From an uncultured Stigonema sp. (lineage in GTDB: Bacteria > Cyanobacteriota > Cyanobacteriia > Cyanobacteriales > Nostocaceae): 40,583 bases of DNA. The position numbers and the translations under genes were made by a program. A model generated the notes under the pieces. It did no database searches. It was not told the origin of the DNA and saw nothing but the letters and a program-made list of their open reading frames with translations. This document shows, in pieces, positions 3,284-35,454 of this stretch. The stretch's first letter is position 1. Each line of letters begins with the position of its first letter. Location: contig CAZZXJ010000001.1 of assembly GCA_964657905.1 (NCBI GenBank), forward strand, positions 1 through 40,583, in the 5' to 3' direction.

Positions 3284-6200
3284 TTAGTAGTGTAAATTGG
3301 ATAACTGCTGTTGTGGATTAGCGACAATATTTTCCAACAAAAGCTGGAAATTTCCCGCCATTCGGTCAATAGTAGTGGCATCAAACAAATCCTTACTGTA
3401 GCTCCACGCCAGATGGAGCAACCCTTTTTGTTGGCTAACAATCACGAATAAATCAAAACTTAACCCAATCCTACCGTACATAAATTGGCTCTCGACTTCT
3501 AGTCCTGGTACTTTAACTTCATTGTCGTCTAAATTACTGAAATCACTAATCATGTTAAACCATACCTGTAATATTGGCTTCTGTATCAAATCCCACTCTA
3601 GCTCTTCTAACAGCTTTGAAAATGGTAGTTCCTGGTGTGTATAAGCTGAGTTCGTCACCTGTTGCAACTGACTCGACAACTCTTTAAATGTCGAGTTTAA
3701 AGAAAGCTCAGTACGTATGATCAGCGTATTAGAAAAGAAGCCTATTAACCCTTCAAGCTCTGTGCGACTACGACTAGCAACAGGCACAGTTACTAGAATG
3801 TCAGGCTGTTCAGTATAATGGTATAGTAAAGTCTTCAATGCTGCCAGTAAAATCACAAACAACGTCACTCCTTCCCTTTTGGAAAGCGCCTTCAGCTTTT
3901 GTGTGAGGACATTGGGCAGTATGCAAATCTGTGTGCCAATCTGGAAGGACGGAACTGGTGGTCTGGGTCTGTCTGCTGGTAAGTTCAGCATAGTTAGATT
4001 GCCACCTAGCTGCTGCTTCCAATATGCCACCTGTTTCTCCAGTAATGCCCGCATCTGCTCGCGCTGCCAAATGGCAAAGTCAGCGTATTGAATGGGCAGT
4101 TCCTGTAGAGGTGAGGGCAAGCCCGTGGAGAAGGACTTATAGAGTATCATTAACTCTCTCATGAATATATTCATAGACCACCCATCTAAGATAATGTGGT
4201 GTATGTTCACTAGCAGCACAGACTTCTCATCTTGGAGCCGTAATAAAGTAAATCGCACCAACGGGTCGCAGGCTAGATCAAAGGAACGCTCGGATTCCTC
4301 TGTAGCCAGCCGCTGTGCTTCTTTGTCCCGCGCCTGATTTGGAAGCTCATGGAGATCCACCACTGGCAATTTCATATTGAGGTTGTGGGTAATAATCTGC
4401 ACAAGGCTACCATCCACCTCAGCAAAGTTTGTCCGCAATGATTCGTGACGTTGAACAATCTCGTTAAGGCTGTGGTTTAGGGACTTAACATTGAGGCAGC
4501 CGGTGAAGTGTATGCAAAAAGAAAGTATTAAAAAGCTACTATGTGGTAGAAACTGGTTTGCTCCCCAGGCCGACTCTTGTGTAAAAGACAGAGGTAAGTT
4601 TCTATCTCGTGAAACCGGAACAAGCGGTAAGTTAGTTTCCTTGCCGATCGCTGTAATAAGTGCGCCCCCCTCTTCTGCTGTAGTTCGCAGTGCCTCAAGG
4701 TTATCAGCTAAGTCAGCTACAGTAGGAGACGCAAATAAACGCTGTAAAGACAACTCAACAGAGAAAGCGTCGCGCAAGCGAGAAATTAATTGACTAGCCA
4801 GAAGGGAGTTTCCCCCCAGTTCAAAAAAGTTGTCATGTATGCTTATTTGCGGTGTGCCTAAAACTTGCTGCCAAATTTGCGCAATTTTTCGTTCTACCTG
4901 GTTGCGAGGTGCTACGTACTCCCCTGCTTCGTGACGAATAAACCGTCGCACCAATTCGTCTCGATCAATTGCGCCGCTTAAGGTGAGGGGCATTTCTAAT
5001 AGCTGTACTAAGTTGCAGGTACTGTGAGTTCCAAAGCGGTCTTGCACCCGACAGTCTGCTAATTTAACAACGGAAGAACTGCTATTAGCAGTGAAATAGG
5101 CAGTTAATTTCTGCAAACCAAGAGCTTCGGACTCCAAACGTCGAATGTTTTGGTTGTTGCCATCTAAACCTATCAATAAGTACGCTTGGTCATGGTTTAA
5201 CCCTGCAAGCATTGAAGATAGCCCTTGGGAGGAGGCCATGGCATAGTAACCTTTGGCGCGGGTTAGATTCTTCATCTGATACCCTTGACTCATCCCTGTC
5301 TCATCCCACATACTCCAAGCAAAACAATAGCTGCGTAATGCACTGTTGTCTTTTTGGTAATGGGAAAAGCGATCAAGAAAACTATTGGCAGCAGCATAAG
5401 CGCCTACAGCCTTGCCTCCAAAGAAACCGTTTACGGAAGAAAAGTTGATAAAAATGCTGTCTGCATTGTCTTTGATCAGTTGATGCAGCATCCAAGTACC
5501 CAACATCTTGGGACGCAGCACTGCTGCTAAGTTCTCCTGGGTTTCTTCAACCACATGTTGCTCGTGGAATGTTCCAGCTAGATGGATTACCCCATCTAGA
5601 TCTTTGCCCCATCGGAATTTAGCTTTTTCGACGATTGTCAGCAACTGTTCCAAGTCACAGATATCAGCGGCAGAGTAAATGACTTCTCCCCCAAGCATCT
5701 GTAGTTCTTCGTAAGCTTTAATCCGCTGCGAAATAGCATCTCCTGCCTCTAGATGGGCATTCCAGGTTCTTTTTTCCGGTAAAGGAGTTCTTCCTACCAA
5801 CAGTAGCCGAGCTTGGTAATATTTCAGCAGATACTGGGCAATTTGGATACCCACACCTCCCAGTCCTCCGCTGAGGAGATAAATTCCTCTTTGCTTGAAG
5901 GGTATTTCTTGCTTTGGTTCGTGCAGATTCACTTTTTCCAAACGCGGAACAAAACGCTGCCCATTCCTGATGGCTATCTCTGGTTCTTTTGTCGGGACGA
6001 GGAGTTCTTGTAAAATATAAGCCCCATTTGTTTCAACTAGATCAAACGGCAAATCGATGTGGCGACAGTTCAACGAGGGCAGTTCTTGGGGAATGGTTTT
6101 CAGCAGCCCCAAGACTGTGGATTTTTCATAAGCTATCGGGTCAGTTGACAAAACGGACTGGATATGGGAGGAAATGAATAGCAACTGAACACCATGCTCA

Positions 6201-20819: not shown

Positions 20820-23800
20820 CTAATAAGTATTTTCGGCTTTTAGCATTGCTTTTACTTGGTCATCGTCAAGTTGTTCTAACTGCGCCAAGATATCGTCATC
20901 TATTTGCTCCGCTAGTCTTTGGACGATCGCACTAGCCAACTCAGCTACCGTTGGATTCTCAAACAAGCTACGCAGTGGCAACTCCAACTGAAACACATCT
21001 CCCACGCGGGACATCAGTTGGGTAGCCAGCAAAGAGTGTCCTCCCAACTCAAAGAAATTATCGTAAATACCCATTTGTGCAACGCTCAGCACTTGTTGCC
21101 AGATCAAGGCAAGCTGACGTTCAACTTCAGTTGTTGGCCCTACCCACTTGCTAGCGTCACGACCTGGAGTGCCCAGAGTCAGCAACTGCTCTCGGTCAAT
21201 TGCCCCTGTATCGGTGAGGGGCATTTCTTCAAGCTGGACAAAATCGCTCTTGCTCTTAGTCCCGAAGCGATCGCGCACCATCAACTCTGAGAAGCTAGCA
21301 AATGAGGAATCGTTGTTGCTAGCAGTGAAATAAGCAGTTAACTTCTGTATAGCATAACAATTGCTGTCGGTGTATCGTTGAATATTTCGATTGCTGCCAT
21401 CTAAACCCACAATCAGGTGTGCATGATTGCCAGACAAAGCAGCGAGCAAAGAATTTAATCCCTGCTGTTTTGAGATGATATAGTATCCCATAGCGCGAGC
21501 AGCATCGCGGGCATATTCGGGATTTCCCTGACTCATGCCCAAGTCATCCCACAGTGCCCAGTTAAAACAGTAGGTCTGTTGATGTAAATGATATCGCTGA
21601 TACAGAGAACAACAATCTAGAAAGCTATTAGCAGCAGAATACGCACTAAAGGTAGCCCCTCCAAATACACTATTTACTGAAGAGAAAGAAATAAATACTG
21701 CTTGAGAGTTATTCTTGATGAGTTGGTAGAGCGTCCACGTGCCATGAACCTTGGGTCGCAACATAGAATCGAAAGTCTCAGGAGTTGCCACCGTTACCCA
21801 GTGCTCGTCCATGACCTTCCAATGGTACTCTAAATTCCCCTCCCCTGCTAAATGAATAATCCCTGAAAGTGGTTCATTCCAAATTGACTCGGCGTCAGCA
21901 ACAACCTGAAGCAAACCATCAAGATTGCATATATCAACGGCTCTGTAAATAAACTCACCACCTGCCGCTTCAATTGCCAGGTAATTTTTGATCCGCTTAG
22001 CCAGAGGTGATTCCTGGTCAAGATGCTTCGACCATTCAGTTCTATCTGGCAACTCTGTTCGACCTACAGTAATCAGTTTTGCACCATACTCCTTAATCAA
22101 AAATTGGCACAGATATGTACCTATTCCACCCAATCCCCCTGTCACCAGATAAATTCCGCCTTGCTTGAGGGGAATATCCTGGGTTTGTTGCTGCAACATA
22201 TCTACTTTGGCAAGAGACGAGGAAAGACGCCGACCGTTACGATAGGCAATTTCCGAATCACTTCCGGCAATGCGGAGTTCTCGAAGAATATGCTCTGCAT
22301 TCACCTCCACAGACTGAATTTCTAAATCTATATGGCGACATTGCAACCAAGACAACTCTAGAGGAATTGTCTTTAAAAATCCGATAAGCGTAGATTTTTC
22401 ATAAGCAATCTTGTCGGCGCTTGAGGTGAACTGTGCATGGCTGGAAATCACTTGCAACTGGAGTGAATGCTCGGAACCTTGGACTTTAGCTAAAGCCTGT
22501 AGCAAAAACATTAGACTGTAAATTCCTTGCTGTTGAGCTTCGTCGATAGCTTCTAAGCTGGAAACTTCCCCAGCATAGTCGTTATAAGTCCATAGGTGCA
22601 GAATTTGGGTGATGCGAAAATTAGCGGCTTTTAGGGACTCTAGTAACAGCCGATAGTGGTCGGGTTGATGAGGATTAATGCAATAGCAATCGCGATTGAG
22701 TTGGGCAAATTTTAACCCTGCTTCAACAGTAATGTAGGGTTGATTCAGCCGATTGAGTTCTCTACAGATAAATTTTCCTAATCCTAAGCGATCCAAGAAA
22801 ACTAGGTAAGGACCTGTATGAAGGTGAGCAGTGTAGGTTGCTGCTTCTTTGGGACGCCAAATCTTGTGGTAAAACCAGTCGGGAAGAGTATTGGCATTGC
22901 CAGTATTAATGTCAAGCTGTTTGAGAATGTCGTTGAACTCACCAACTTCAAAGCGGTTTCTCAGATGCGATCGCTGGATTTTACCAATCGCGGTTTTGGG
23001 AATTGCTGACTTCTCTAGAGGAACCAGATAGTCTGGATTGATGCCAATGCTTTGAACAACTTGGCTGCGGATTTCTTTAATAAGATTGACAACCTCTGCC
23101 TCCGAGGCGACTGCGGGACTGAAAAAGATTGCTAATTTATCTGTATGGTCACTAGCACCCCGGACGGCTACGGCGGCGGTATATGAAACCTCGACACCAC
23201 TAAGCTCTTCTACTGTCGATTCAATTTCATGACTGTAGTAGTTGAGAGCGTTAATGATGATGACATCTTTCTGGCGACCAGTAATGGTCAGAGATCCCTG
23301 GTGTAGAAACCCTAAGTCCCCTGTATCAAACCAACCGTCAGAGGTCAAAACTTCCAGGTTGAGTTCTGGATTCTGATAGTAACCAGAGGTCACCGTCAGT
23401 CCTTTGACCTGTAGAGAACCAATCGTGTTTTCTTGAACTACCTGGTTTTTGGGATCGACAATCCGTAGGGAAACCCCTGGAATCGGCGCTCCCACGGAGA
23501 CAAACTTTTGCTCATCTGTCGTTGAGTCGAGGGAAAAGTTGTGGTCAAAAGTCACAGCCGAACTGGTTTCCGACATACCCCATGACGGGTGCATGGTAGT
23601 TGCACTCAGTCCATGAGGAGCTAGCAACTCCAAGAACTTTCTGGCATGTTTGGCAACAATCGCCTCGCCCGCATTCAAAATAAATCGCATCTGTGACAGA
23701 TCCCAACAACGCAAGCTGACCTCAGATGCCCGGTCGTTGATTAGCCCATAAGCAAAGTTAGGTGCCCAGGTAATTGTAGCTCGATAGCGCTCAATCCAAT

Positions 23801-26800
23801 CCAACCATAACAGCGGATCTTGTAGAACCAATTGGGTGGGAGCATGAATCTGTTGGCAACCGAGATAAACGTCGCGAACATGGAACATCACCAGACCGCC
23901 TACATGGTCGAGTGGAAACCAATTCAACGAGACATCAAGGCTGGTAAAATTATTGACTTGAGCGCTAGCTGCCGAACGGCTTAAAAGAGCACCATGGCTC
24001 TGCATCACCGCTTTGGGAATGCCTGTGCTGCCTGAAGTCAAAAGCAAAATCGCTAAATCTTCTGGCTGGCTGACATGCCAATTTTGGTCATCTTCACACC
24101 GACGCAAGTCCTCAAGCGTTGCTAATTGAAAGTTTTCTTTCTTCAATTGCTTTGACCAGGAATTAATCGCCTCTGCGGTGTGTGTACTTGTGAGTACTAT
24201 TGGTCGCCCCAGCATCAGCCAAGTATTCTCCAGCTTGCGAGTGGCACTGTTGTCTTCAGAGTAGGTCGGAGCGATGGCGATCGGTACTGGAACAAAGCCC
24301 CCCAGCACACAACCCCAAAAGGCAGGGATGAAATCTTGATTTTGCTCCAACTGGAAAATCACCTTGTCCTGTGGCTTCAAACCCAGCTTTCTTAATCCCG
24401 CTAGAATTCGCTGCGCTTCCCGTAGTAAATCCCCATAAGATTGATTGATCTGGCTGCCATCTGACTGGATGTAGACGATTCCTTTGGTTGGGCTGTGTTT
24501 GGCTGCCCGGTGTAGGGCTTGTGCTACAGTCATCGGGGCATCAGCAGGAAGCTGTAGTGGTTGACCATGACTGATGGCTGGCTTGTTTGACCCCGATTTC
24601 TCATTGAAAGCCTCCCCCAGTTCTGCTGTTGTTCCTGCAAGTAACTCGCTGGTTTCAAATGCGGTGGCTTGAGAATTAGGAAGCAAGTCTGATAGATGTA
24701 GCGGCGGCAGGCGAAACACCTGCTCAGTAACCACCACCGCCACCTGTTCAATCGAGGGCAGCGCTTGCAGTTGCTCTTCCCATTTTTGCACCAAGTCAGA
24801 TTCAATTACCTCAAGACTTGCCAAGGCTTGTTCGTCCACCTGTCCGGCTGGTGTTAACGGCACTTTAGACAACTGCACATAGGCACACGGTAGCATGTAA
24901 GCTGGCAGAAGGGTTTGCAAGTGGGATTGCAGCTGCTCTGGATTGAAGGCTCCGGATAAAACTACGTATGCAACCAGTTGCCAACCTGTAGCTTCTGTTT
25001 CCCGCACCAGCACCTTAGCATCCTCCACAGAAGGAGCCGCCAACAACGCTGCTTCGACCTCTTCAAGGTCTAAGCGGTTTCCTTTAATCCAAGTCTGCCG
25101 ATCGCAAGACCCTAGCAGTTCCAGTGTGCCATCGATTTGGCGGCGTCCTAACTCACCTGTCTTGAACAAACGAGCCTCTGTGGTTTGGCTGAAGGGATTT
25201 TTGACAAAGCGCTGCGCCGTCTCCAACTCAGCCTGGACGTAGCCCCGTGCCAAACCCGTGCCGCCAACATAGATTTCCCCCTTCACCCCTACTGGTACTG
25301 GTTGTAAGTACTGATCCAAAACGTAAACAGACCGATAAGTGGGATGACCTATGGGCAGGGTCTGTTGGATGCCGAGGGATTGACTAGCATTGCTAGTCAA
25401 CTCTCCTGCTGCCTCTGGTAGACTGTAAAGATTGTGTAACTCACACCTGAAATGCGCTCTGAACGTCTCGGCGACTGAGCGTCGCAACGGCTCGCCACTG
25501 CACAGCACCAAACGCAGCGAACTCAATTGCGCCTTTTTATCCCCACTACTAAAGGCAACAAAAGCTGACAGTGCGCTGGGGACTAAGCCAATTACGCTCA
25601 CCTTTTGACTGGATATCAGGCGCTGCAAGTCGGCGGCATCGTCAGGGCTGTTAGCATCTGCAATTATCAAACGTGCTCCAACAACTAGGGGCCAAAAGAT
25701 TTCCCTGACTGCTGTATCCTGAGCTAAAGAGGCTTGGTCCAACACTGCATCAGACTCACATAGGACAAAGGTCTTTTGCAGCCATTCCAGACGCTGACTT
25801 ACCCCGCAATGCTCTACTTGAACCCCTTGCCTCGACGAATAGATCACGTAAGCAAGGTTTTCAGGCGTTGCCCCATGCACGGGGTTTTCCTCGCTCTGCT
25901 GTGTAATTACTGAACGGTGTGACTCCCAGCAGATGACCTGCGCCTTGTGCTCTGGTAAACGCTCTACCAGATGCTGTTGGCTCAACAACACTGATGGCTT
26001 CGTTTGTGCCAATATCAACCGCAATCGCTCTTGGGGTAGTTGCGGGTCTAAGGGCACATATGCGCCTCCCGCCTTGAGAATGCCCAACAAACCCACTACC
26101 ATTTCCAGCGAACGTTCTACACAAATGCCAACCAAACTCTCCGCACTGATTCCCAGTTTTCGCAAGTAGTGCGCTATTTGATTGGCACGGGCGTTTAACT
26201 GCTGGTAGGTAAGTTGCTGGTTCTCAAAAACCACCGCTACCGCATTTGGATGGATTTGTACTTGCTCCTCAAATAGCTGATGGATACATTTGTTGTTTGG
26301 GAAATCATTATGGGTGCGAGTCCATTCCACCAACAGCTGATGCTGCTCTGTCTCAGTTAGCAGAGGTAATTCGCTAATGGGTTGGTCAGGATTGGCAACA
26401 ATTGCTGCAAGCAAAGTCTTGAAATGACTTGTCATCCTGGCAATGGTATTTGCCTCAAACAGGTCACTGCTATATTCCCACCAACCTATCAGTCCCTTTT
26501 TTGTCTCCCAAATCAACAAACTCAAATCGAACTGAGATGTTCCACGTTCTACCAGTTGGGGAGTCAGAGTAATATTGGGTAACTCCAATGTATCTAAGGA
26601 GAAATTCTCTAAGACAAACATTACTTGGAAAAGAGGATTATAGCTTAGAGAACGTTCTGGCTGTAATGCTTCTACGACTTGCTCATATGGAACATCTTGG
26701 TGAGCATAAGCGGACATTGCAACTTGCCGTACATCAGAGAGGAACTCAGAGAAACTGAGATTCCCTTTAATCTGGTTACGTAGCACCAGAGTGTTAACAA

Positions 26801-27875
26801 AAAAGCCAATAAGTGGCTCAATATCCCGGCGGTTACGGTTGGCAATCGGAGATCCAACACAAATATCATCTTGACCACTGTAACGATAGAGTAAAGTTAC
26901 GTAAGCCGCTAGTAGTGTATGAAACAAAGTAGTTCCTGACTTTTGGCTTAAGCTTTTGAGTTGCTCGGTCAAATTTGGGTCAAGTTGAAATTGCTTGCTA
27001 GCTCCTTGGTAAGTCTTAACTGGGGGGCGCGGTTTGTCTATGGGTAATTCTAACCAGGATGGAGCACCAGCTAAGTGTTGCTTCCAGTAGTTCAGTTGTT
27101 TTTCCAAGACTTTTCCAGTCAACCACTGTCGCTGCCAAACTGCAAAATCAGCGTACTGGATGGGCAAGTCGGGGAGGGGCAAAGGGTTGCGCTCAAGGAA
27201 AGCTCGATAAAGGGTAGACAACTCTTGGAAAAATATCCCCATTGACCAGCCATCTGTAATGATGTGGTGCATGGTCAATATCAGCACATGAGACTCTGAC
27301 CCCAGGTGCAGCAAAGTAACTCGCAACAAAGGACCCTTGCTCAAGTCAAAGGGTTGGCGAATCTCTTTGGTAACTATTTGTTGCACCTCTGCTTCTGGCA
27401 AACCCTGCAAATCCATCACTGGCATAGTAATTGTGAAGGTGGGAGCGATCGCCTGCACGGGTTTTCCATCGACTGCGGGAAATGTTGTCCGCAAACTTTC
27501 GTGGCGACGGATAATTTCGTTGATACTCTGTTCTAGAGCCGCTACATTCAGCGCACCCTGAAGGCGCAACTGGAAACTATCGTTGTAAAATGGGATCTGG
27601 CTTTCTAATTGATAGAGAAACCACATCCTCTGCTGGGCAAAAGATAAAGGCAACTCGACCGAACGCTCCACAGGCACTATTGGATTGGAATTGGAGTGTG
27701 TTGCACTCTTAGCTTCTTCTAGAAAGGCAAGGATTTCTGTTTTCCGCCCTAGCAGTTCCTTTTTTAGGTCTTGGTTCATCACTCCCAAGGGAGCGCGATA
27801 GCTTAGCTGATTGCCTTCAAGCCAAAGTTTTATCCCTAAACTATTCAAGTAAGACAAGAATTCTAACGTTGTCAT
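20820..27875 (-). CDS. Hybrid NRPS module: TubC_N-like docking, C, degenerate A (A*), FAAL-like acyl-AMP ligase, KR, T
   Basis: 2351 aa. The ATG directly abuts the upstream stop (TAG|ATG at 27873-27878). Docking domain: nt 27711-27875 (LEFLSYLNSLGIKLWLEGNQLSYRAP). C: nt 26376-27662 (HHIITDGWS). A*: nt 24816-26303 (see the separate feature). AL: nt 22941-24578 (LLLTSGSTGIPKAV, TWAPNFAY, WGMSETS, GWFDTGDLGF..GRQKDVIIINALNYY, IPKTAIGKIQR). KR: nt 21321-22913 (GGIYLVTGGLGGIG, IIHLAG, YSAANSFLD). A10-like remnant: nt 21180-21275 (VQLEEMPLTDTGAIDREQL). T: nt 20916-21140 (GGHSL). The C-terminal tail is acidic (DDDILAQLEQLDDDQ). Confidence 0.92.
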   Translation of the reverse strand: MTTLEFLSYLNSLGIKLWLEGNQLSYRAPLGVMNQDLKKELLGRKTEILAFLEEAKSATHSNSNPIVPVERSVELPLSFAQQRMWFLYQLESQIPFYNDSFQLRLQGALNVAALEQSINEIIRRHESLRTTFPAVDGKPVQAIAPTFTITMPVMDLQGLPEAEVQQIVTKEIRQPFDLSKGPLLRVTLLHLGSESHVLILTMHHIITDGWSMGIFFQELSTLYRAFLERNPLPLPDLPIQYADFAVWQRQWLTGKVLEKQLNYWKQHLAGAPSWLELPIDKPRPPVKTYQGASKQFQLDPNLTEQLKSLSQKSGTTLFHTLLAAYVTLLYRYSGQDDICVGSPIANRNRRDIEPLIGFFVNTLVLRNQIKGNLSFSEFLSDVRQVAMSAYAHQDVPYEQVVEALQPERSLSYNPLFQVMFVLENFSLDTLELPNITLTPQLVERGTSQFDLSLLIWETKKGLIGWWEYSSDLFEANTIARMTSHFKTLLAAIVANPDQPISELPLLTETEQHQLLVEWTRTHNDFPNNKCIHQLFEEQVQIHPNAVAVVFENQQLTYQQLNARANQIAHYLRKLGISAESLVGICVERSLEMVVGLLGILKAGGAYVPLDPQLPQERLRLILAQTKPSVLLSQQHLVERLPEHKAQVICWESHRSVITQQSEENPVHGATPENLAYVIYSSRQGVQVEHCGVSQRLEWLQKTFVLCESDAVLDQASLAQDTAVREIFWPLVVGARLIIADANSPDDAADLQRLISSQKVSVIGLVPSALSAFVAFSSGDKKAQLSSLRLVLCSGEPLRRSVAETFRAHFRCELHNLYSLPEAAGELTSNASQSLGIQQTLPIGHPTYRSVYVLDQYLQPVPVGVKGEIYVGGTGLARGYVQAELETAQRFVKNPFSQTTEARLFKTGELGRRQIDGTLELLGSCDRQTWIKGNRLDLEEVEAALLAAPSVEDAKVLVRETEATGWQLVAYVVLSGAFNPEQLQSHLQTLLPAYMLPCAYVQLSKVPLTPAGQVDEQALASLEVIESDLVQKWEEQLQALPSIEQVAVVVTEQVFRLPPLHLSDLLPNSQATAFETSELLAGTTAELGEAFNEKSGSNKPAISHGQPLQLPADAPMTVAQALHRAAKHSPTKGIVYIQSDGSQINQSYGDLLREAQRILAGLRKLGLKPQDKVIFQLEQNQDFIPAFWGCVLGGFVPVPIAIAPTYSEDNSATRKLENTWLMLGRPIVLTSTHTAEAINSWSKQLKKENFQLATLEDLRRCEDDQNWHVSQPEDLAILLLTSGSTGIPKAVMQSHGALLSRSAASAQVNNFTSLDVSLNWFPLDHVGGLVMFHVRDVYLGCQQIHAPTQLVLQDPLLWLDWIERYRATITWAPNFAYGLINDRASEVSLRCWDLSQMRFILNAGEAIVAKHARKFLELLAPHGLSATTMHPSWGMSETSSAVTFDHNFSLDSTTDEQKFVSVGAPIPGVSLRIVDPKNQVVQENTIGSLQVKGLTVTSGYYQNPELNLEVLTSDGWFDTGDLGFLHQGSLTITGRQKDVIIINALNYYSHEIESTVEELSGVEVSYTAAVAVRGASDHTDKLAIFFSPAVASEAEVVNLIKEIRSQVVQSIGINPDYLVPLEKSAIPKTAIGKIQRSHLRNRFEVGEFNDILKQLDINTGNANTLPDWFYHKIWRPKEAATYTAHLHTGPYLVFLDRLGLGKFICRELNRLNQPYITVEAGLKFAQLNRDCYCINPHQPDHYRLLLESLKAANFRITQILHLWTYNDYAGEVSSLEAIDEAQQQGIYSLMFLLQALAKVQGSEHSLQLQVISSHAQFTSSADKIAYEKSTLIGFLKTIPLELSWLQCRHIDLEIQSVEVNAEHILRELRIAGSDSEIAYRNGRRLSSSLAKVDMLQQQTQDIPLKQGGIYLVTGGLGGIGTYLCQFLIKEYGAKLITVGRTELPDRTEWSKHLDQESPLAKRIKNYLAIEAAGGEFIYRAVDICNLDGLLQVVADAESIWNEPLSGIIHLAGEGNLEYHWKVMDEHWVTVATPETFDSMLRPKVHGTWTLYQLIKNNSQAVFISFSSVNSVFGGATFSAYSAANSFLDCCSLYQRYHLHQQTYCFNWALWDDLGMSQGNPEYARDAARAMGYYIISKQQGLNSLLAALSGNHAHLIVGLDGSNRNIQRYTDSNCYAIQKLTAYFTASNNDSSFASFSELMVRDRFGTKSKSDFVQLEEMPLTDTGAIDREQLLTLGTPGRDASKWVGPTTEVERQLALIWQQVLSVAQMGIYDNFFELGGHSLLATQLMSRVGDVFQLELPLRSLFENPTVAELASAIVQRLAEQIDDDILAQLEQLDDDQVKAMLKAENTY
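21321..24578 (-). other. AL-KR cassette, copy 2
   Basis: See the motifs listed for CDS 20820..27875. The cassette lies between the A10-like PLTPAGQVDE and the A10-like PLTDTGAIDRE. Confidence 0.8.
24816..26303 (-). other. Catalytically degenerate canonical adenylation domain (A*)
   Basis: A1/A2 are intact (LTYQQLNARAN, LKAGGAYVPLD). A3 reads LAYVIYSSRQGVQVEH, so the GSTGxPKG P-loop is deleted. A5 reads NLYSLPEAAG rather than NxYGPTE. A7 reads FKTGELGRR rather than Y[RK]TGD. A8 reads WIKGNRLDLEEVE. A10 reads PLTPAGQVDE, with Gln in place of the invariant Lys. Confidence 0.8.
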
Positions 27876-30800
27876 CTATACGACTCCTTCTTCATATTTG
27901 TTTTCTGCGTCGTCAACAGATACACTCCACTCTTGGGCTGCAATTCGCAACGCCTCAATGCTCTGTTGCAAACCAGCTACAGTAGGAGATGCAAAAAAAC
28001 GATTTAGGGACAACTCTATAGAGAAAGCCTCGTGCAACCGAGAAATGACTTGGTAGGCTACCAGAGAATTTCCCCCCAGTTCAAAGAAGTTGTCGTGAAT
28101 GCCGATCTGGGGTATTCCTAGAACTTCTTGCCAGCTTTGAGCAATCTGCCATTCCATCTCATTTCTAGGGGCTACAGGCAACGCTCTAGCGGCGAACCCA
28201 TCACCTGTTTCCAGACAAGTCAAGCCCCTAACCAGTAAGTTTCGAGCAATTTCGCCCCTTGAGGTGAGGGGCATTTCCGGTAGCTGCACCAAGTTACAGT
28301 TAACGGTTGTTCCGAAGCGATCTAGCACCATCAAATCTGATAAACCAAGGACGGAAGAACCGTTGCTTACCGTGAAATAGGCAGTTAATTTCTGTAACAG
28401 TCCACCCGACTCTTTAGTAAAACGTTGAATTTTTGGATTGCTGCCATCTAAACCAACAATCAGCCGTGCTTGGTCATGGTACAAACCAGCCACGAAGGAA
28501 TACAGCCCTTCTTGGGGACTCATATCATAGTAACCTTGAGCGCGGGTCAGGTCTTGCCTCTGGTAACCCTTGTTCATCCCTATTTCACGCCAGATTGTCC
28601 AAGCAAAGCAATAACTCTGCAACAAACCAATAGAGCGCTGGTATTGGTTAAAGCTTTCCAGAAAAGTGTTGGCAGCAACATAAGCGCCAATAGTAGCTCC
28701 GCCAAAGAAACTCATCAAAGACGAAAAGCTAATAAAAACCCCCTGCCCTTGGTTCACAAGCACCTGATGCAGCACCCAGCCACCTAATACTTTGGGACGA
28801 AGCATGGCGGTTAAACTCTGCCGCGTTTCATCCAAGAGCATTTGCTCCTGGTAAATTCCTGCCAGATGGATCACCCCATCCAGCTTGCATCCCCAGCGAG
28901 ACTTGACCTGTTCCACCACCTGTTGTAATCGGGTAAAATCGCAGATATCCACTGCCTCATAAACCACTGCGTCCCCAAGCTGCGTTAATTCCTGGTAAGC
29001 CTTAATTTTTGCTGACATCTCTGTAGAAACCGAAGATCCAACGTCTTTACCGGGTAGAGGAGTCCGACCTACTAATAGCAACTTGGCATTAAAGGACTTA
29101 ATCAGATACCTAGCAATTTCAACCCCAACACCTCCAAGTCCGCCGGTGATGAGATACATCCCCCCCGGTTTAAAGGCAAGTTCTTGCTTTGATTTCTTTT
29201 GCAGATCTACTTTTTCCAAGCCTGCAACTAAACGCTGTCCATCGCGGTAAGCTACCTCTTGTTCTTTTGACAAAACCTGGAGTTCTTGGAGAATATAATC
29301 CCCATTTACCTCTACTTGGTTTGGTGGCAAATCTATATGGCGACAGTTCAACCAAGGCATTTCCTGGGGAATAGTTTTGACTACACCCAAAACTGGAGAT
29401 TTCTCATAAGCTATCAAGTCTGTTGGCTGTGTGAACTGGGTATAGCTGGAAATCAACAGCAACCGGACTGAATTTTCAGAACTCTGAACTTTTGCTAAGG
29501 CTTGGACGAGGAACAACAAACTGTAAATTCCTTGCTCTTGTGCGGACTCAAGAGCCTCTAAGCTAGATATTTCTCCGCCATATTCTTGATAATTCCACAA
29601 ATGGAGAATCTGCCCGAGCAGAAGGTTATTTGCTTTTAGGGTTGAGAGCAAGAACTGATAATGATCTGCATTTGAGGGAGCTAGACAGAAGTGGTTGGAA
29701 CTAAGTTGGGCAAAATCTGACCCGGATGAAACGCATACATAAGGCAGGTTCTGTTGTTCCAATTGCTTGCATAGAAACGTCCCTAATCCTAACTGGTCGA
29801 GGAATACTAGGGTAACGTCTGTGCGGGAGAGAGTATTCAAGATCGCTGCTTTCTTACGGCGCCAGACTTTTTGGTAGAACCAGTCGGGAATCGTGTTGGC
29901 ATTGCCTAGTAATATATCAACCCGTTTAAGAATGTCGTTGAACTCACCAACCTCAAAGGACTTTCTCAGATGCGATCGCTGAATCTTGCCAATAGAGGTT
30001 TTGGGAATTGCCGACTTCTCCACCGGAACCAGATAGTCTGGATTGATGCCAATGCTTTGAACAACTTGACTGCGGATTTCTTTAGTGAGCTTGACAACCT
30101 CTGCCTCCGAGGCGACTGTGGGACTGAAGAAGATTGCTAATTTATCTGTATGGTCACTAGCACCCCGGACGGCTACGGCTGCCGTATATGAAACCTCGAC
30201 ACCACTAAGCTCTTCTACTGTCGATTCAATTTCATGACTGTAGTAGTTGGCACCGTTAATGATAATCAGATCTTTCTCGCGTCCGGTAATTGTCAGGCAT
30301 CCCTGGTTGATCAAAGCTAAGTCTCCAGTTCTGAACCATCCATCTTCCGTAAAAACTTCCCGGTTCAATTCTTCGTTATTATAATACCCTGACATTACAG
30401 TCTTTCCACTGACCTGTAGAGAACCAATGGTATCTTCACATACCACCTGGTTGTGACTATCGACAATCCGCAATTTTACTCCGGGAATCGGTGTTCCCAC
30501 GCACACAAATGAATCATCATCTGTTGATAACACCGAAAAGTTATTTGAGTAGGTGACACCACTAGACACTTCCGCCATACCCCAAGCAGGGTGCATGGCA
30601 CTTGGGCTGAGCTGATGAGGAGCAAGCAGTTCCAAAAACCGCCTCGCTGTCTTCGCGACGATGGATTCAGCTCCGTTCAAGACAAATTTCAGACACGATA
30701 AATCCCAATGCCGTTGGCTAATCTCTGAGGCTAAGTTATTGATCAGCCCAAAAGCGAAGTTGGGGGCAAAGGTGATGGTGACTCGATGTTGCTCAATCCC

Positions 30801-32357
30801 ATCCAGCCACAAGAGAGGTTCACGTAGAACCAGTTGGGCGGGAACCTGGATTTGTTGGCAACCTAAATAAACGTCCCGAATCTGGAAATATATGATGCCC
30901 GCAACATGATCCAGAGGCATCCAGTTTAAAGTCACATCATCCCGGGAAAAACCGTTCATTTGAATCGAGCCAACCGTTCTACTTAACAGATTTTCATGGC
31001 TGAGCACGACGCCTTTAGGCATACCCGTGCTTCCGGAAGTGAGAACTAGCAGCGCCATATCATCCGGCGGGCTAACATGCCAATTTTGGTCATGTTCACA
31101 CCGACGCAAGTTATCAACCGTCGTCAGTTGAAAGTTTTCTTTCTTCAATCCCTTTGACCAGGAATTAATCGCCTCTGCTTGAGTTGCACTTGTCAGCACT
31201 ATTGGTCGCCCCAGCATCAGCCAAGCATTCTCCAGCTTGCGAGTGGCACTATTGTCTTGCAAGTAGGTCGGGGCGATTGCTATTGGCACTGGAACAAAGC
31301 CCCCCAGCACACAACCCCAAAAGGCAGGGATGAAATCTTGATTTTGCTCCAACTGGAAAATCACCTTGTCCTGTGGCTTCAAACCCAGCTTTCTTAATCC
31401 CGCTAGAATTCGCTGCGCTTCCCGTAGTAAATCCCCATAAGATTGATTGATCTGGCTGCCATCTGACTGGATGTAGACGATTCCTTTGGTTGGACTGTGT
31501 TGGGCTGCCCGGTGTAGGGCTTGTGCTAGAGTCGTCGGGGCATCAGCAGGAAGCTGTAGTGGTTCACCATGACTGACGGCTGGCTTGTTTGACCCGGATT
31601 TGTTTTTGCTCGTCTCTGGATGCGTTGGGGATCCTGTAAGCAAGTCGCTCCCATTGCCGACGACGGCTTGACAATCACCTAGCAAATCTGATATATGCAG
31701 CGGCGGCAAGCGAGACACCTGCTCTTGAACTACCACCGCCACCTGTTCAATAGATGGCTGCGTGAGCAGTTGCTCTTCCCATCTTGACACCAAATCGGAG
31801 TCAATTACCGGAAGACGCGCCAAGGCAAGTTCATCCACCTCTCCCGTGGCCGTCAGTGGCAGGGTGGACAACGGTACATAGGCGCACGGTAGCACAGCGG
31901 CGGGGATAATAGCTTGCAAATGGGATTGCAGATGTTCTGGATTGAAGGCTCCTTTTAAAACTATGTAAGCCACCAGTTGCAGACCTTCTGTTTCTGTTTC
32001 CCGCACCAGCACCCAGGCGTCCTCTACCGCAGGTGTCATTAATAACGCAGCTTCCACTTCCTGAAGGTCTACCCGGTTTCCTTTAATCAAGGTATGGCAA
32101 TTGCCTGAACCTAGCTGGGCAAATGACAGAGGCTTGTCCCCCTCTCCTGAGACTCTTACACGGGGTAGGTCAGTATCACTTGCACTCATGTTGCACAAGC
32201 GCAGCAACATAATAAGCTCAGTCTCATACTTACTCAGTAAATCACGTAGCTCTAGTGTCAGTACTCCCTTGGGATCGCCTATGCGTAACTCGTCACCATC
32301 AGCGCACAGATTGACACCCTGCTCGGAGAGTTCAGCTATTAATTGATTAAGGTTCAT
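27876..32357 (-). CDS. NRPS-like protein: TubC_N-like docking, C-domain scar, vestigial A_sub, FAAL-like acyl-AMP ligase, KR, T
   Basis: 1493 aa. First gene of the operon. Docking domain: nt 32202-32357 (LIAELSEQGVNLCADGDELRIGDPKG). C1-motif scar PLSFAQ: nt 32115-32132, fused directly to the A8-like IKGNRVDLQEVEAALL. Vestigial A_sub: nt 31818-32096 (PLTATGEVDE, no Lys). AL: nt 29943-31574 (LVLTSGSTGMPKGV, TFAPNFAF, WGMAEVS, GWFRTGDLAL..GREKDLIIINGANYY, IPKTSIGKIQR). KR: nt 28383-29915 (GGMYLITGGLGGVG, VIHLAG, YVAANTFLE). A10-like remnant: nt 28230-28322 (VQLPEMPLTSRGEIARN). T: nt 27948-28169 (GGNSL). Confidence 0.9.
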   Translation of the reverse strand: MNLNQLIAELSEQGVNLCADGDELRIGDPKGVLTLELRDLLSKYETELIMLLRLCNMSASDTDLPRVRVSGEGDKPLSFAQLGSGNCHTLIKGNRVDLQEVEAALLMTPAVEDAWVLVRETETEGLQLVAYIVLKGAFNPEHLQSHLQAIIPAAVLPCAYVPLSTLPLTATGEVDELALARLPVIDSDLVSRWEEQLLTQPSIEQVAVVVQEQVSRLPPLHISDLLGDCQAVVGNGSDLLTGSPTHPETSKNKSGSNKPAVSHGEPLQLPADAPTTLAQALHRAAQHSPTKGIVYIQSDGSQINQSYGDLLREAQRILAGLRKLGLKPQDKVIFQLEQNQDFIPAFWGCVLGGFVPVPIAIAPTYLQDNSATRKLENAWLMLGRPIVLTSATQAEAINSWSKGLKKENFQLTTVDNLRRCEHDQNWHVSPPDDMALLVLTSGSTGMPKGVVLSHENLLSRTVGSIQMNGFSRDDVTLNWMPLDHVAGIIYFQIRDVYLGCQQIQVPAQLVLREPLLWLDGIEQHRVTITFAPNFAFGLINNLASEISQRHWDLSCLKFVLNGAESIVAKTARRFLELLAPHQLSPSAMHPAWGMAEVSSGVTYSNNFSVLSTDDDSFVCVGTPIPGVKLRIVDSHNQVVCEDTIGSLQVSGKTVMSGYYNNEELNREVFTEDGWFRTGDLALINQGCLTITGREKDLIIINGANYYSHEIESTVEELSGVEVSYTAAVAVRGASDHTDKLAIFFSPTVASEAEVVKLTKEIRSQVVQSIGINPDYLVPVEKSAIPKTSIGKIQRSHLRKSFEVGEFNDILKRVDILLGNANTIPDWFYQKVWRRKKAAILNTLSRTDVTLVFLDQLGLGTFLCKQLEQQNLPYVCVSSGSDFAQLSSNHFCLAPSNADHYQFLLSTLKANNLLLGQILHLWNYQEYGGEISSLEALESAQEQGIYSLLFLVQALAKVQSSENSVRLLLISSYTQFTQPTDLIAYEKSPVLGVVKTIPQEMPWLNCRHIDLPPNQVEVNGDYILQELQVLSKEQEVAYRDGQRLVAGLEKVDLQKKSKQELAFKPGGMYLITGGLGGVGVEIARYLIKSFNAKLLLVGRTPLPGKDVGSSVSTEMSAKIKAYQELTQLGDAVVYEAVDICDFTRLQQVVEQVKSRWGCKLDGVIHLAGIYQEQMLLDETRQSLTAMLRPKVLGGWVLHQVLVNQGQGVFISFSSLMSFFGGATIGAYVAANTFLESFNQYQRSIGLLQSYCFAWTIWREIGMNKGYQRQDLTRAQGYYDMSPQEGLYSFVAGLYHDQARLIVGLDGSNPKIQRFTKESGGLLQKLTAYFTVSNGSSVLGLSDLMVLDRFGTTVNCNLVQLPEMPLTSRGEIARNLLVRGLTCLETGDGFAARALPVAPRNEMEWQIAQSWQEVLGIPQIGIHDNFFELGGNSLVAYQVISRLHEAFSIELSLNRFFASPTVAGLQQSIEALRIAAQEWSVSVDDAENKYEEGVV
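28383..31574 (-). other. AL-KR cassette, copy 1
   Basis: See the motifs listed for CDS 27876..32357. The flanks of the AL are near-identical at nucleotide level to copy 2, while its core (about 30250-31075) is divergent. Confidence 0.8.
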
Positions 32358-33232: not shown

Positions 33233-33844
33233 ATGAACAAAACCATACGTTCTCCAGCCCTGACCCGTGCGCGGTTGATAGAAGCTGCCACCCAAGTGTT
33301 TGCCTCTGCGGGTGTTCAAGGAGCAACAACCCGTGAAATTGCTCGTGTTGCAGGCGTGAATGAGGTGACTTTGTTTCGTCATTTCGCCAGCAAAGAACAA
33401 CTATTGGAGGCAGTGATTGAAAATGTGTTGGCGCTACAGACAGAAGCCCTAGCGCACCCAGAAGAATGGACGCAGGATCTTCGCCTTGACTTAAAGCACT
33501 ACGCCCAGCTATACAACTCCATGTTGGAGGCGCAAGAAGATTTAATTCGTACCTTTATTGGGGAAGCCAAAAGGCATCCTGAGGCAGCGCGGCGAGTCAT
33601 CCAAGAAGCTGCCAGGTCTATGAAAGAAAAACTGGTGGCTTATCTGCGCAGCGGTCAGACAAGAGGAACGGTACGACCAGACCTTGATCTGGTTCCAGCC
33701 ATAGATATTTTTATCGGTATGCTTTTAGCCGGAATGCTGCGTCGCAGTGCAGCGCTAAATCTTCTCTATAGCCGTGAAGACTATATCGAGAATTGCGTGG
33801 ATATTTTTGTGCGCGGTATCAGTGCCACTTCCCGATTCCTATGA
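33233..33844 (+). CDS. TetR/AcrR-family transcriptional regulator
   Basis: 203 aa. N-terminal HTH signature RLIEAATQVFASAGVQGATTREIARVAGVNEVTLFRHFASKEQLL. Its stop overlaps the downstream start (ATGA at 33841-33844). Confidence 0.9.
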   Translation: MNKTIRSPALTRARLIEAATQVFASAGVQGATTREIARVAGVNEVTLFRHFASKEQLLEAVIENVLALQTEALAHPEEWTQDLRLDLKHYAQLYNSMLEAQEDLIRTFIGEAKRHPEAARRVIQEAARSMKEKLVAYLRSGQTRGTVRPDLDLVPAIDIFIGMLLAGMLRRSAALNLLYSREDYIENCVDIFVRGISATSRFL

Positions 33845-35454
33845 CTACAATCTCCAACCGTCCAACTTCTCATAAAGCTAAACCTTCAACTCCTACACCG
33901 TCTGGTTATGTCTACGGACCACGTCGGTGGGCGATCGCAGCCACGGCTTCTCTAGGAGCCATTCTAGAAGTGATTGACACCAGCATTGTCAATGTTGCCC
34001 TGACAGACATTCAAGCGAGTTTGGGAGCAACAATTACTGAAGTTGGCTGGGTCGTAACCTCATATGCGATCGCCAACGTTATCCTGATTCCTTTAACCGC
34101 TTGGCTAGGAGATTATTTTGGCAAGAAGACTTACTTCATCTTCTCACTCATTGGCTTTACCATTTCCTCGGTAATGTGCGGTGTGTCCTCTAATCTCGCG
34201 ATGCTGATTATTTCACGCATTATTCAAGGTTTATGCGGTGGAGGGTTGCTTGCCAAAGCTCAAGCAATCCTCTTCGAGACCTTCCCACCTGAAGAGCAAG
34301 GCGTCGCCCAAGCGGTTTTTGGCGTTGGGGTGATTGCTGGTCCTGCCATTGGTCCGACTCTTGGGGGATATTTGACCGATGGTCTAGGTTGGCGCTGGAT
34401 CTTCTTTGTCAATATTCCCTTTGGCATCTTGGCTGTGGCAATGGCTTGGACATTTTTACTAAAGGACAAAAACAAAGGTGAGCAGCAAAACCGCAGCGTT
34501 GATTGGTGGGGAATTGCGCTTTTGGTGATTGCCGTAGGCAGCTTCCAGACTGTGTTAGAGGAAGGGCAGAAAGACTACTGGTTTGAATCTATTTTCATTT
34601 CCACCCTAACAATGGTTGGTTTCATTGGACTAGGACTATTTATATGGCGCGAACTCTCAGCTAAACATCCTGCGGTTGACTTAAGGGTACTGCGTCACCG
34701 TTCCCTAGCTGCTGGGAGTCTTTACTCAGGAATTCTTGGTATGGGACTTTACGGAGCGCTCTTTGTCGTACCGATCTTTGCCCAGAGTATACTCCAATTT
34801 ACGGCAACGCAGACGGGACTATTGCTGGCTCCTGGAGCCTTAGCTTCAGCAATTACGATGATTATGTTAGGCAAGTTATCGGGTAAAGTCGATGCCAGAC
34901 TGCTGATTGCTAGCGGCGCTATTGGCATGGCGTTAGTCATGTTTCAACTGTCAAGCATCACCCCACAGACAGGGACAGATGATTTATTCTGGCCGATGAT
35001 AGAGCGCGGAGCGGTTACAGTTTTGATGTTTCTCCCCCTAAGTCTCGCAAGTTTGGCTCCCCTACCTAAAGAGGATATTTCAGCAGGGTCTGGCTTTTAC
35101 AATCTCACCCGTCAATTAGGGGGTAGCGTGGGAATTGCCATACTGACGATGCTGCTTGATCGACGGGAGGCTTTCCACCGAGCGATGCTGGTGACTCATG
35201 TTACTCCTTACGATCCAGAAACAAATCAGCGCCTCGACTTGTTGACAGGGCTATTTCAGAGCCAGGGGATGGATGCTGTCACCGCTCATCAGCAGGCACT
35301 AACCGTAATTGATCAGACGATTAATCAACAAGCTGCCGTTTTGTCTTTCGCTGACATCTTTCGGGTGGTCGGAGTTGTGTTTCTGTGCTCACTGCCTCTG
35401 TTGCTATTCTTGGGTAAAGGCGGTGCTGGTGCTAAAGCTCCAGCTGCTCACTAA
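33841..35454 (+). CDS. DHA2 (EmrB/QacA-type, 14-TMS) MFS efflux transporter
   Basis: The ORF track starts at 33793. The in-frame ATG at 33841 overlaps the TetR stop by 4 nt and is the preferred start. Typical EmrB-like segments are present: IVNVALTDIQASLGAT, AWLGDYFGKKTYFIFSLIGFTISSVMCG, LGGYLTDGLGWRWIFFVNIPFG. Many hydrophobic spans. Confidence 0.88.
   Translation: MTTISNRPTSHKAKPSTPTPSGYVYGPRRWAIAATASLGAILEVIDTSIVNVALTDIQASLGATITEVGWVVTSYAIANVILIPLTAWLGDYFGKKTYFIFSLIGFTISSVMCGVSSNLAMLIISRIIQGLCGGGLLAKAQAILFETFPPEEQGVAQAVFGVGVIAGPAIGPTLGGYLTDGLGWRWIFFVNIPFGILAVAMAWTFLLKDKNKGEQQNRSVDWWGIALLVIAVGSFQTVLEEGQKDYWFESIFISTLTMVGFIGLGLFIWRELSAKHPAVDLRVLRHRSLAAGSLYSGILGMGLYGALFVVPIFAQSILQFTATQTGLLLAPGALASAITMIMLGKLSGKVDARLLIASGAIGMALVMFQLSSITPQTGTDDLFWPMIERGAVTVLMFLPLSLASLAPLPKEDISAGSGFYNLTRQLGGSVGIAILTMLLDRREAFHRAMLVTHVTPYDPETNQRLDLLTGLFQSQGMDAVTAHQQALTVIDQTINQQAAVLSFADIFRVVGVVFLCSLPLLLFLGKGGAGAKAPAAH

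Follow-up and report, generated by a model that had tools for sequence, protein, structure and literature searches.

Nonribosomal peptide synthetase (NRPS) modules that carry two adenylation (A)-type domains in tandem, the second of which activates a 2-keto acid, have been described for several pathways. The subject of this study is a further module of this kind, encoded by ORF B in a 40,583-nucleotide stretch of DNA from an uncultured Stigonema sp. (contig CAZZXJ010000001.1; the whole stretch is called the window here). From its sequence, we consider it highly probable that ORF B encodes a five-domain 2-keto-acid (depsipeptide) elongation module close to HapC. Its order would be condensation (C) domain, Ax, KAL, ketoreductase (KR), and thiolation (T) domain, in which Ax is an A domain that has lost catalytic motifs and KAL is a 2-keto-acid AMP ligase.

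PyrG of the pyridomycin pathway (2011) has tandem A domains: A3 and the catalytic Lys are missing from the first, and a keto acid is activated by the second (PMC10510592). AulA of the auriculamide pathway (2016) has the order A1-A2-KR-PCP, and a truncated protein without A1 adenylates 3-methyl-2-oxovalerate equally well (PMC5238615). The dolastatin 15 paper (PNAS, September 2026; PMC13643306) gave the C-Ax-KAL-KR-T architecture its name, for Dol15D-M2, and counted 125 five-domain and 337 four-domain homologues, with HapC, HctF-M1, HcaB, and PyrG among the members. In the same work the Dol15D-M2 KAL was found to adenylate 2-ketoisovalerate (KIV), an activity killed by the V219D substitution; a Gly-Met pair was reported to recognize the 2-keto group; a continuum of Ax reduction with recombination around the KAL was proposed; and the thioesterase (TE) of Dol15E/F was proposed to form a pyrrolidine-2,4-dione. 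HapC has the published code VGVWLALF with 2-oxoisovalerate as substrate, and it corresponds to the Hiva unit of hapalosin; HapC is also known from Hapalosiphon welwitschii and Westiella intricata. StsA is the keto-acid-activating A-KR initiation module of a cereulide-synthetase homologue, and its split "pseudo-Asub" is cited here after PMC10510592. Annotation of C-Ax-KAL-KR-T modules easily goes wrong: in 2015 HapC was given as C-A-KR-PCP and its Ax was left out, and the 2024 hectoramide paper called the HcaB ligase "possibly nonfunctional" and modelled the dead Ax-type domain as the keto-acid selector.

Domain organization of ORF B

According to the ORF list and translation, positions 20820-27875 contain exactly one ORF, on the minus strand, which begins with ATG and encodes 2351 amino acids (aa). 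The Pfam and NCBIfam coordinates gave the order C, canonical-type A, second ANL ligase, KR, and T within a single module (Table 1). AMP-binding was matched in two separate stretches (Pfam, E 8.5e-123), the first at aa 535-879, followed by AMP-binding_C at aa 939-1011; the second ligase lies at approximately aa 1112-1648 (NCBIfam). C, KAL, KR, and T each retain intact catalytic motifs, and the protein ends in an acidic tail of 34 aa after the T domain. An earlier note, made from the letters of the sequence, had proposed a docking-C-A*-ligase-KR-T layout, and this was borne out by the domain calling. Every motif string quoted in it is found verbatim in the ORF B translation, and its A-domain-sized region at nucleotides (nt) 24816-26303 is equivalent to aa 525-1020 and matches Ax.

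A second contig (L016), from an independent metagenome and with 99.8% nt identity, codes for the same 2351-aa ORF B protein; the defects in Ax are therefore no assembly artefact. ORF B is a mosaic with respect to third-position GC content (Ax core 0.53, KAL 0.49, KR 0.41), and at synonymous sites its domains have diverged from HapC to different degrees (Ax 1.2, KAL 0.43, KR 0.28). These differences are consistent with separate histories of the ORF B segments.

The first adenylation domain

The closest solved relatives of aa 515-1050 in the PDB were the A domains of LgrA (HMMER alignment, E 6e-150), and the alignment with them located the changes in Ax. At A3 the P-loop reads YTSgstglAKGV in LgrA and YSS.....RQGV in Ax, a gap of 5 residues. 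At A5, NxYGPTE has become NLYSLPE (G to S; NLYSLPEAAG at aa 815-824); at A7, TGD has become TGE (D to E; FKTGELGRR at aa 904-912); and at A10, NGKVD has become AGQVD (K to Q; PLTPAGQVDE at aa 1006-1015). The claim that the catalytic motifs of this domain are destroyed thus stood up to a profile alignment. Motifs A1 and A2 and Asp235 are kept. In the canonical A domains of ORF C, in the same cluster, A3, A5, A7, and A10 are all intact. To judge from its motifs, Ax is a catalytically dead canonical NRPS A domain.

The P-loop was also lost in 14/14 homologous Ax domains whose A3 was matched by a pattern scan; the Iphinoe homologue was not matched and is thus outside the 14. It was gone as well in all four representatives with a full Ax directly upstream of a KAL-type ligase, which were picked out with phmmer from 150 listed at 50% identity, most of them giant multi-module NRPSs. 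The homologue search used a 1111-aa Ax plus KAL query, and the matches listed were at most about 1950 aa long, such that complete five-domain proteins are under-represented. A degenerate A5, N[LF]YSLPEAAGE, is common to the Ax domains of Fischerella, Caldora, Symploca, Moorena, and metagenome relatives. Loss of the A10 Lys is not universal, the residue being retained in the Ax of some relatives (Moorena, Caldora, Symploca). We conclude that the Ax lesion is ancient and common to product-linked pathways (hapalosin, dolastatin 15, and pyridomycin).

Selection on Ax was estimated as the ratio of nonsynonymous to synonymous substitution rates (dN/dS). Comparison of the window with L016 was uninformative (13 differences), and codon alignments with HapC and with the Iphinoe homologue (72.6% identical to ORF B and collinear) were used instead. 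The dN/dS of the Ax core was 0.19-0.20, a value that is approximate because dS in the Ax core is 1.2-1.3, near saturation; in the same alignments it was 0.19-0.20 for KAL and 0.20-0.25 for KR. These values suggest that purifying selection on Ax is as strong as on the catalytic domains, and that Ax is maintained and not drifting.

A ligand-dependent role, in which Ax binds an amino acid, a nucleotide, or a keto acid and gates or regulates the module, would also go with a dN/dS as low as that of catalytic domains. Asp235, A1, and A2 are retained, the degenerate A5 and A8 motifs are themselves conserved between genera, and a keto acid was modelled in the Ax-type domain of HcaB in the 2024 hectoramide paper. 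However, the P-loop is missing from every Ax in which A3 was located, further catalytic residues are lost in ORF B, and the first A domains of PyrG and AulA were inactive or dispensable in adenylation assays (PMC10510592; PMC5238615). Moreover, two other modules of the same cluster, ORF A and ORF F, both manage without an Ax core, and a structural role explains the purifying selection equally well. We therefore consider a ligand-dependent Ax unlikely, and prefer an Ax that is kept as structure.

The second ligase

In searches of the PDB, aa 1031-2252 of ORF B matched 6ULW (StsA) with E 3.9e-231 (query 11-1144, chain 31-1157), and the match was continuous over the ligase, the KR, and the flanks. 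KAL matched the StsA A domain (6ULX) with E 1e-154 and the McyG loading domain with E 5e-161; the next matches were structures of fatty-acyl-AMP ligases (FAALs), with E 1e-52 to 1e-43, and then NRPS A domains, with E near 1e-20. The corresponding bit scores were 773 and 520 for StsA, 541 for McyG, and about 150-180 for the FAAL structures.

The motifs of this ligase are intact. Its A3 P-loop reads LLLTSGSTGIPKAV (aa 1277-1290), the A10 Lys is present in IPKTAIGKIQR (aa 1625-1635), and FIPAFWGCVLGGFVPVPI, TWAPNFAY, and GDLGF...GRQKDVIIINALNYY are all found. The position of Asp235 is occupied by Val (PLDH-V-GG), which aligned with Val235 as published for HapC, and WGMSETS (aa 1432-1438) contains the Gly-Met keto-recognition motif. 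From these matches and motifs, KAL is best classed as an intact ANL ligase of the StsA/McyG (KAL) clade.

The earlier note had called this ligase FAAL-like, which was right to the extent that KAL is nearer to the FAAL of HapA (30.6% identity, E 5e-55) than to the canonical A domains of ORF C (22-23% identity, E 2e-18); KAL and its own Ax gave no significant match. The family assignment did not hold. The FAAL models scored below their cut-offs on KAL (NCBIfam NF006624, 299 bits vs 600; NF004509, 228 vs 775), and the extra A5-A6 segments of the HapA FAAL, the sole FAAL reference used, are absent from KAL in the alignment. Two class assignments were accordingly rejected: membership of the FAAL family, given these scores, the missing HapA insertions, and the much closer StsA and McyG; and a canonical amino-acid A domain interrupted by the KR, given the low identity to canonical A domains.

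As to function, the ligase could still be a true FAAL that loads a non-keto (fatty or hydroxy) acid, with the KR having some other role. FAAL and FACL models are among the NCBIfam matches, FAAL structures rank directly after StsA and McyG, and the ligase is 30.6% identical to the HapA enzyme. Set against this are the model scores far under their cut-offs, the 520-770 bits of StsA and McyG, the Val235 and Gly-Met residues, and the absence of the HapA insertions. In addition, the hapalosin unit assigned to the orthologue HapC is Hiva, and a carrier-adjacent KR has only a 2-keto group to reduce, because the module has no ketosynthase (KS). True FAAL function is very improbable, and by analogy with the characterized modules KAL, rather than Ax, is expected to adenylate the 2-keto acid and load it on the T domain.

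The ketoreductase and its flanking segments

The KR proper extends over aa 1907-2111 and its N-terminal structural part over aa 1711-1862 (Pfam). The NADPH motif TGGLGGIG (GGLGGIG at aa 1913-1919) and the catalytic residues K (RPKV), S (FSS), and Y and N (YSAAN; YSAANSFLD at aa 2079-2087) are present.

Two further segments flank the KAL and KR. From aa 1041 onward ORF B pairs with StsA from residue 31 onward, and the segment to which this belongs, the putative N-terminal half of a pseudo-Asub, weakly resembles the A8 helix-strand of a genuine Asub (z 2-3.7) and has been conserved in ORF A, in ORF F, and in every homologue. The putative C-terminal half aligned with the part of a canonical Asub that extends from the beta-strand preceding A9 to A10 inclusive (z 9.5 relative to shuffled sequences), with the A10 Lys replaced by Ala. 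On these alignments, KAL and KR are bracketed by two predicted pseudo-Asub halves, as described for StsA.

Proposed mechanism

We propose that KAL would adenylate a small branched 2-keto acid, most likely 2-ketoisovalerate, because the six KAL pocket residues that could be mapped (V, G, V, W, L, A) equal those of the published 2-oxoisovalerate code of HapC, HctE, and HctF. KAL would then load the acid on the T domain, where the KR would reduce it with NADPH to a 2-hydroxyacyl thioester, and the C domain would esterify the new hydroxyl with the acyl chain from upstream. Ax would do no chemistry; its role would be structural, probably that of a partner to the C domain and of a feeder to the pseudo-Asub. 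Keto-acid activation, reduction on the carrier, and ester formation had all been anticipated in the earlier note, and this is very probably right in light of the StsA match, Val235, the Gly-Met pair, HapC, and the precedents of PyrG, AulA, and Dol15D-M2.

Several observations weigh against this interpretation. The A1 of AulA was dispensable for adenylation (PMC5238615), so an Ax is not needed for adenylation itself. Ax may preserve a C-A platform, but an AlphaFold2 model of C, Ax, and the pseudo-Asub N-terminal half (aa 60-1065, 11-sequence alignment) was too poor to bear on this, with a mean predicted local distance difference test (pLDDT) score of 40 and a predicted template modelling (pTM) score of 0.29. 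One relative (L001/P0002) has its C domain at the end of one protein and a full Ax at the start of the protein downstream. The Ax dN/dS is approximate, as stated above. The substrate call rests on six mapped residues, and the residue beside Gly-Met differs (Ser vs Ala). Finally, the module order given below was derived only from the presence or absence of C and docking domains.

The split arrangement in L001/P0002 also weakens the rule, which we had considered, that an Ax core is kept only with a C domain in cis. Were the Ax core retained solely to give an in-cis C domain a rigid partner, the engineering of depsipeptide modules would have a testable rule to go by.

Paralogous modules in ORF A and ORF F

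ORF A encodes a keto-acid module without a C domain and Ax core, 61.7% identical to ORF B aa 881-2324. Its first 81 residues (docking domain, linker, and C1) are equivalent to residues 1-81 of a full five-domain relative (P0054), with 58% identity, and from aa 82 it resumes at residue 924 of that protein, or residue 921 of ORF B, at the A8 hinge "LGS"; the gap in the subject sequence at the junction is 840 residues (BLASTP). At the scar, PLSFAQ, the C1 motif of the lost C domain, is joined straight to LGSGNCHTLIKGNR, the A8 hinge of Ax, and the Ax Asub is retained after the junction. Read from the two collinear segments, a single in-frame deletion took from ORF A the C-domain body together with the entire Ax core and spared the docking domain and the Asub.

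ORF F is 56.8% identical to ORF B aa 939-2314. It has no C or docking domain at its N terminus, and the protein stops exactly at the end of its C domain. From this domain content, ORF F is a probable initiation module, whose terminal C domain would serve the C-less ORF A.

The modules are also mosaic. The ORF A ligase (29952-31514, minus strand) is 95-100% identical to the ORF B ligase at its start and 88-95% at its end; in the substrate-binding core its identity to ORF B is only 60-70%, against about 90% to the Iphinoe homologue. This pattern suggests that the specificity core of ORF A was swapped by recombination. The mapped pocket residues are V, A, I, F, L, G in ORF A and V, G, I, W, L, G in ORF F. 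The KRs of ORF A (28584-29768) and ORF F (5300-6478) are 33-63% identical to that of ORF B and are of a different sequence type; an extra segment, GEGNLEYHWKVMDEHW, is present in ORF B and HapC. The difference in KR type may mean opposite stereochemistry of the hydroxy acids.

Another arrangement was seen in a 1591-aa relative (P0012), which starts with an Ax Asub remnant and a KAL; T, C, and A come immediately after the KAL, and a KR is missing. To judge from its domains, this module would deliver an unreduced 2-ketoacyl unit.

The gene cluster and its predicted product

ORF B belongs to an operon at 3284-32357, on the minus strand, with six large ORFs, all open and tightly packed. The coordinates of these and of other features are collected in Table 1.

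Table 1 Features of ORF B, its gene cluster, and the neighboring genes in the window
Feature	Size or residues	Position (nt)	Strand	Basis and remarks
ORF B, predicted dd-C-Ax-KAL-KR-T five-domain 2-keto-acid module (dd, docking domain)		20820..27875	-	ORF list, translation, Pfam, NCBIfam
TubC_N-type N-terminal docking domain	aa 5-54	27714..27863	-	Pfam PF18563, E 2e-17
C domain, putatively ester-forming	aa 74-515	26331..27656	-	Pfam PF00668, E 3e-122; HHIITDGWS intact at aa 203
Ax, predicted dead canonical NRPS A domain	core aa 535-879; Asub aa 939-1011	24843..26273	-	LgrA matches, alignment
A3 scar of Ax, LAYVIYSSRQGVQVEH; GSTGxPKG P-loop 5 residues short	aa 674-689	25809..25856	-	LgrA alignment
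Putative pseudo-Asub N-terminal half, VIESDLVQKWEEQLQALPSIEQVAVVV...PPLHLSDLL	aa 1023-1065	24681..24809	-	StsA alignment from aa 1041
KAL, predicted intact 2-keto-acid AMP ligase	aa 1112-1645	22941..24542	-	StsA/McyG matches, motifs
Polyketide synthase (PKS)-type KR with structural subdomain	aa 1711-2111	21543..22745	-	Pfam KR, E 9e-31; Beta-ketacyl_N, E 5e-19
Putative pseudo-Asub C-terminal half, ...FVQLEEMPLTDTGAIDREQL / ...MPLTDTGAIDREQL	aa 2177-2231	21183..21347	-	Asub alignment
T (carrier) domain, GGHSL	aa 2254-2317	20925..21116	-	Pfam PP-binding, E 6.5e-14
ORF A, dd/C1 scar/Ax Asub remnant/pseudo-Asub N/KAL/KR/pseudo-Asub C/T	1493 aa	27876..32357	-	Pfam
ORF A deletion junction	aa 76-176	31830..32132	-	BLASTP, two collinear segments
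ORF C, C-A-T-C-A-T, two canonical modules	2188 aa	14240..20806	-	Pfam, motifs
ORF D, terminal PKS module KS-AT-ACP-TE	1297 aa	10341..14234	-	Pfam, motifs
ORF E, EryCIII/UDPGT-type glycosyltransferase inside the operon	435 aa	8998..10305	-	PF06722, E 1.5e-23; PF00201
ORF F, Ax Asub remnant (aa 60-125)/pseudo-Asub N/KAL/KR/T/C	1894 aa	3284..8968	-	Pfam
Two small ORFs directly downstream of ORF F	108 aa; 101 aa	2511-2837; 2890-3195	-	Kept in all related contigs
TetR-family regulator and overlapping MFS transporter		33233-35454	+	Divergent from the operon start

The specificity codes of ORF C, read by hand, were DAFWLGGTFK and DAWFLGNVVK, which we take to be Val-like and Leu-like, respectively, to judge from Stachelhaus codes. 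The AT of ORF D contains HAFH (malonyl type), and there is no KR in its module. No O-methyltransferase was found in the operon (3284-32357). We infer three consecutive KAL-KR-T modules in the cluster, in ORF F, ORF A, and ORF B. The likely order of assembly, as far as domain content indicates, is ORF F (KAL-KR-T-C), ORF A (KAL-KR-T), ORF B, ORF C (Val, Leu), and ORF D (malonyl, TE), because ORF F lacks both a C and a docking domain at its N terminus and carries a C domain at its C terminus, and ORF A has a docking domain and no C domain. The backbone of the product would have three hydroxy acids in a row, then Val, and a ketide or tetramate end derived from Leu, and the product may then be glycosylated by ORF E. 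A literature search, which was not exhaustive, found no described product that combines three hydroxy acids with a sugar and a tetramate.

The cluster recurs in several independent metagenome assemblies, on contigs L010-L016 (ENA ERZ24794448, ERZ24794496, ERZ24794438, and ERZ24794451; JGI 3300013314; Logan ERR13305879), which were reached with the glycosyltransferase and a cluster member as queries. Over ORF A and ORF B the nt identity to the window, computed for L016 only, was 99.7-99.8%. In the low-coverage contig L012, ORF F is in two genes; the cluster is intact in all the other contigs. Exact-sequence look-ups of ORF A and ORF B returned no database record.

These data bear on the possibility that the module, or even the cluster as a whole, has lost its function and is in decay, with the dead A domain as the first visible lesion. 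One domain is clearly inactivated and ORF A has a large internal deletion, as decay would predict. On the other hand, the six large ORFs are open and tightly packed, the cluster is present in several metagenome assemblies (99.7-99.8% identity in L016) and intact except in L012, C, KAL, KR, and T have kept their catalytic motifs, and dN/dS is about 0.2 throughout; the Ax lesion, moreover, is ancient and shared with the hapalosin, dolastatin 15, and pyridomycin pathways. Decay is hardly credible on this evidence, and a working keto-acid module remains the preferred interpretation of ORF B.

Of the two small ORFs next to ORF F, the 108-aa one matches the eukaryotic Pfam family CBF_beta (E 2.4e-8; 34 bits, cut-off 25), and the 101-aa one gave no family match. 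From their families and position, the TetR regulator and MFS transporter could plausibly provide regulation and export for the cluster product. MsrA, encoded beside the cluster, is 83-87% identical to proteins of Nostoc, Rhizonema, Desmonostoc, Brasilonema, and Scytonema, which places the source among the Nostocales.

It is possible, and we put it forward with considerable doubt, that the cluster is a snapshot of five-domain keto-acid modules shrinking to four-domain ones, and that its assembly line would give an undescribed glycosylated oligo-depsipeptide or tetramate. One operon in the window holds three paralogous modules, each at a different stage of Ax loss, with a clean deletion scar in ORF A and a still further reduction in ORF F; the selection estimate suggests that the dead domain is maintained rather than decaying; and the cluster is apparently a glycosylated depsipeptide pathway with no matching described product. 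These observations should be useful to those who engineer depsipeptide modules and for domain-calling software.

Comparison with known systems

The best relative of ORF B in a scan of one genome per species was the 2348-aa HapC of Fischerella sp. PCC 9431 (Fis9431DRAFT_5400), whose neighbors (FAAL-ACP, KS-AT-cMT-KR-ACP, and C-A-NMT-T) are those of the published hapalosin cluster. HapC has nearly the same length (2348 vs 2351 aa) and the same TubC_N-C-Ax-KAL-KR-T order, is collinear over its full length with 70.2% identity (Ax core 66%, KAL 86%, KR 86%), and has the same P-loop deletion (LAYVLYSSRRGILVEH). HapC accepts a polyketide donor, however, and for that reason its C domain shares just 41% identity with the C domain of ORF B. 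The contexts also differ: HapC stands in the series FAAL-ACP, PKS, HapC, C-A-NMT-T, and PKS-TE, whereas the window has three KAL modules, Val, Leu, PKS-TE, and a glycosyltransferase.

PyrG and AulA resemble ORF B in that the first A domain has neither the A3 phosphate-binding motif nor the catalytic lysine and does not adenylate, the second activates a 2-keto acid, and a PKS-type KR comes next. They differ in their hosts (an actinobacterium and Chloroflexi) and in their pocket codes, VGMTIGASGK and GIFWLGASGK, for 3-methyl-2-oxovalerate; AulA is also an initiation protein without a C domain. The earlier note had not recognized the architecture of ORF B from characterized assembly lines; it had in fact been published for PyrG, AulA, and Dol15D-M2, and HapC is 70% identical from end to end.

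The same note had contrasted ORF B with the modules of cereulide, valinomycin, and cryptophycin, as a canonical A domain with an inserted KR. This contrast has to be given up. Because StsA matches ORF B, the ligase in the cereulide and cryptophycin modules is of the same type as KAL, and the only difference lies in the extent of the surviving Ax. StsA/CesA/CesB, CrpD-M2, and HctE have the same KAL-KR cassette with a split pseudo-Asub (6ULW) and the same chemistry, from 2-keto acid to 2-hydroxyacyl-S-T to ester; they have an Ax fragment only (A6-A10 or less), whereas ORF B has a whole Ax. ORF A and ORF F are of this reduced, four-domain type, like the StsA, CrpD-M2, and HctE modules. The FAALs (FadD32, those of E. 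coli and Legionella, HapA, and HctA) belong to the same ANL branch and are nearer to KAL than NRPS A domains are, with a shared motif flavor (TWAPNFAY, GxxE, GRxKDxIIxxGxNxY). KAL differs from them in having Val235 and Gly-Met and in being set between pseudo-Asub halves with a KR.

Dol15D-M2 is like ORF B in its inactive Ax with a degraded A3, embedded KAL, hydrophobic residue at 235, Gly-Met pair, and KR, and its pseudo-Asub is completed by an element from Ax (PMC13643306). The likeness extends downstream to an amino acid followed by KS-AT-ACP-TE, ORF D being analogous to Dol15F (PMC13643306). The systems differ at position 235 of Ax, which is Glu in Dol15D and Asp in ORF B, and the cluster in the window has no O-methyltransferase and has three keto-acid modules and a glycosyltransferase. 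The mechanism of ORF B is the published one, and the architecture itself adds little; what is new here is the dN/dS of about 0.2 for a dead Ax, the clean in-frame deletion in ORF A, and the three consecutive KAL-KR-T modules. Ax reduction and recombination around the KAL, both described for the dolastatin 15 system, are both seen in the window as well, and the selection estimate, the deletion scar, and the mosaic modules fit the published continuum of reduction and recombination, extend it modestly, and overturn nothing in it.

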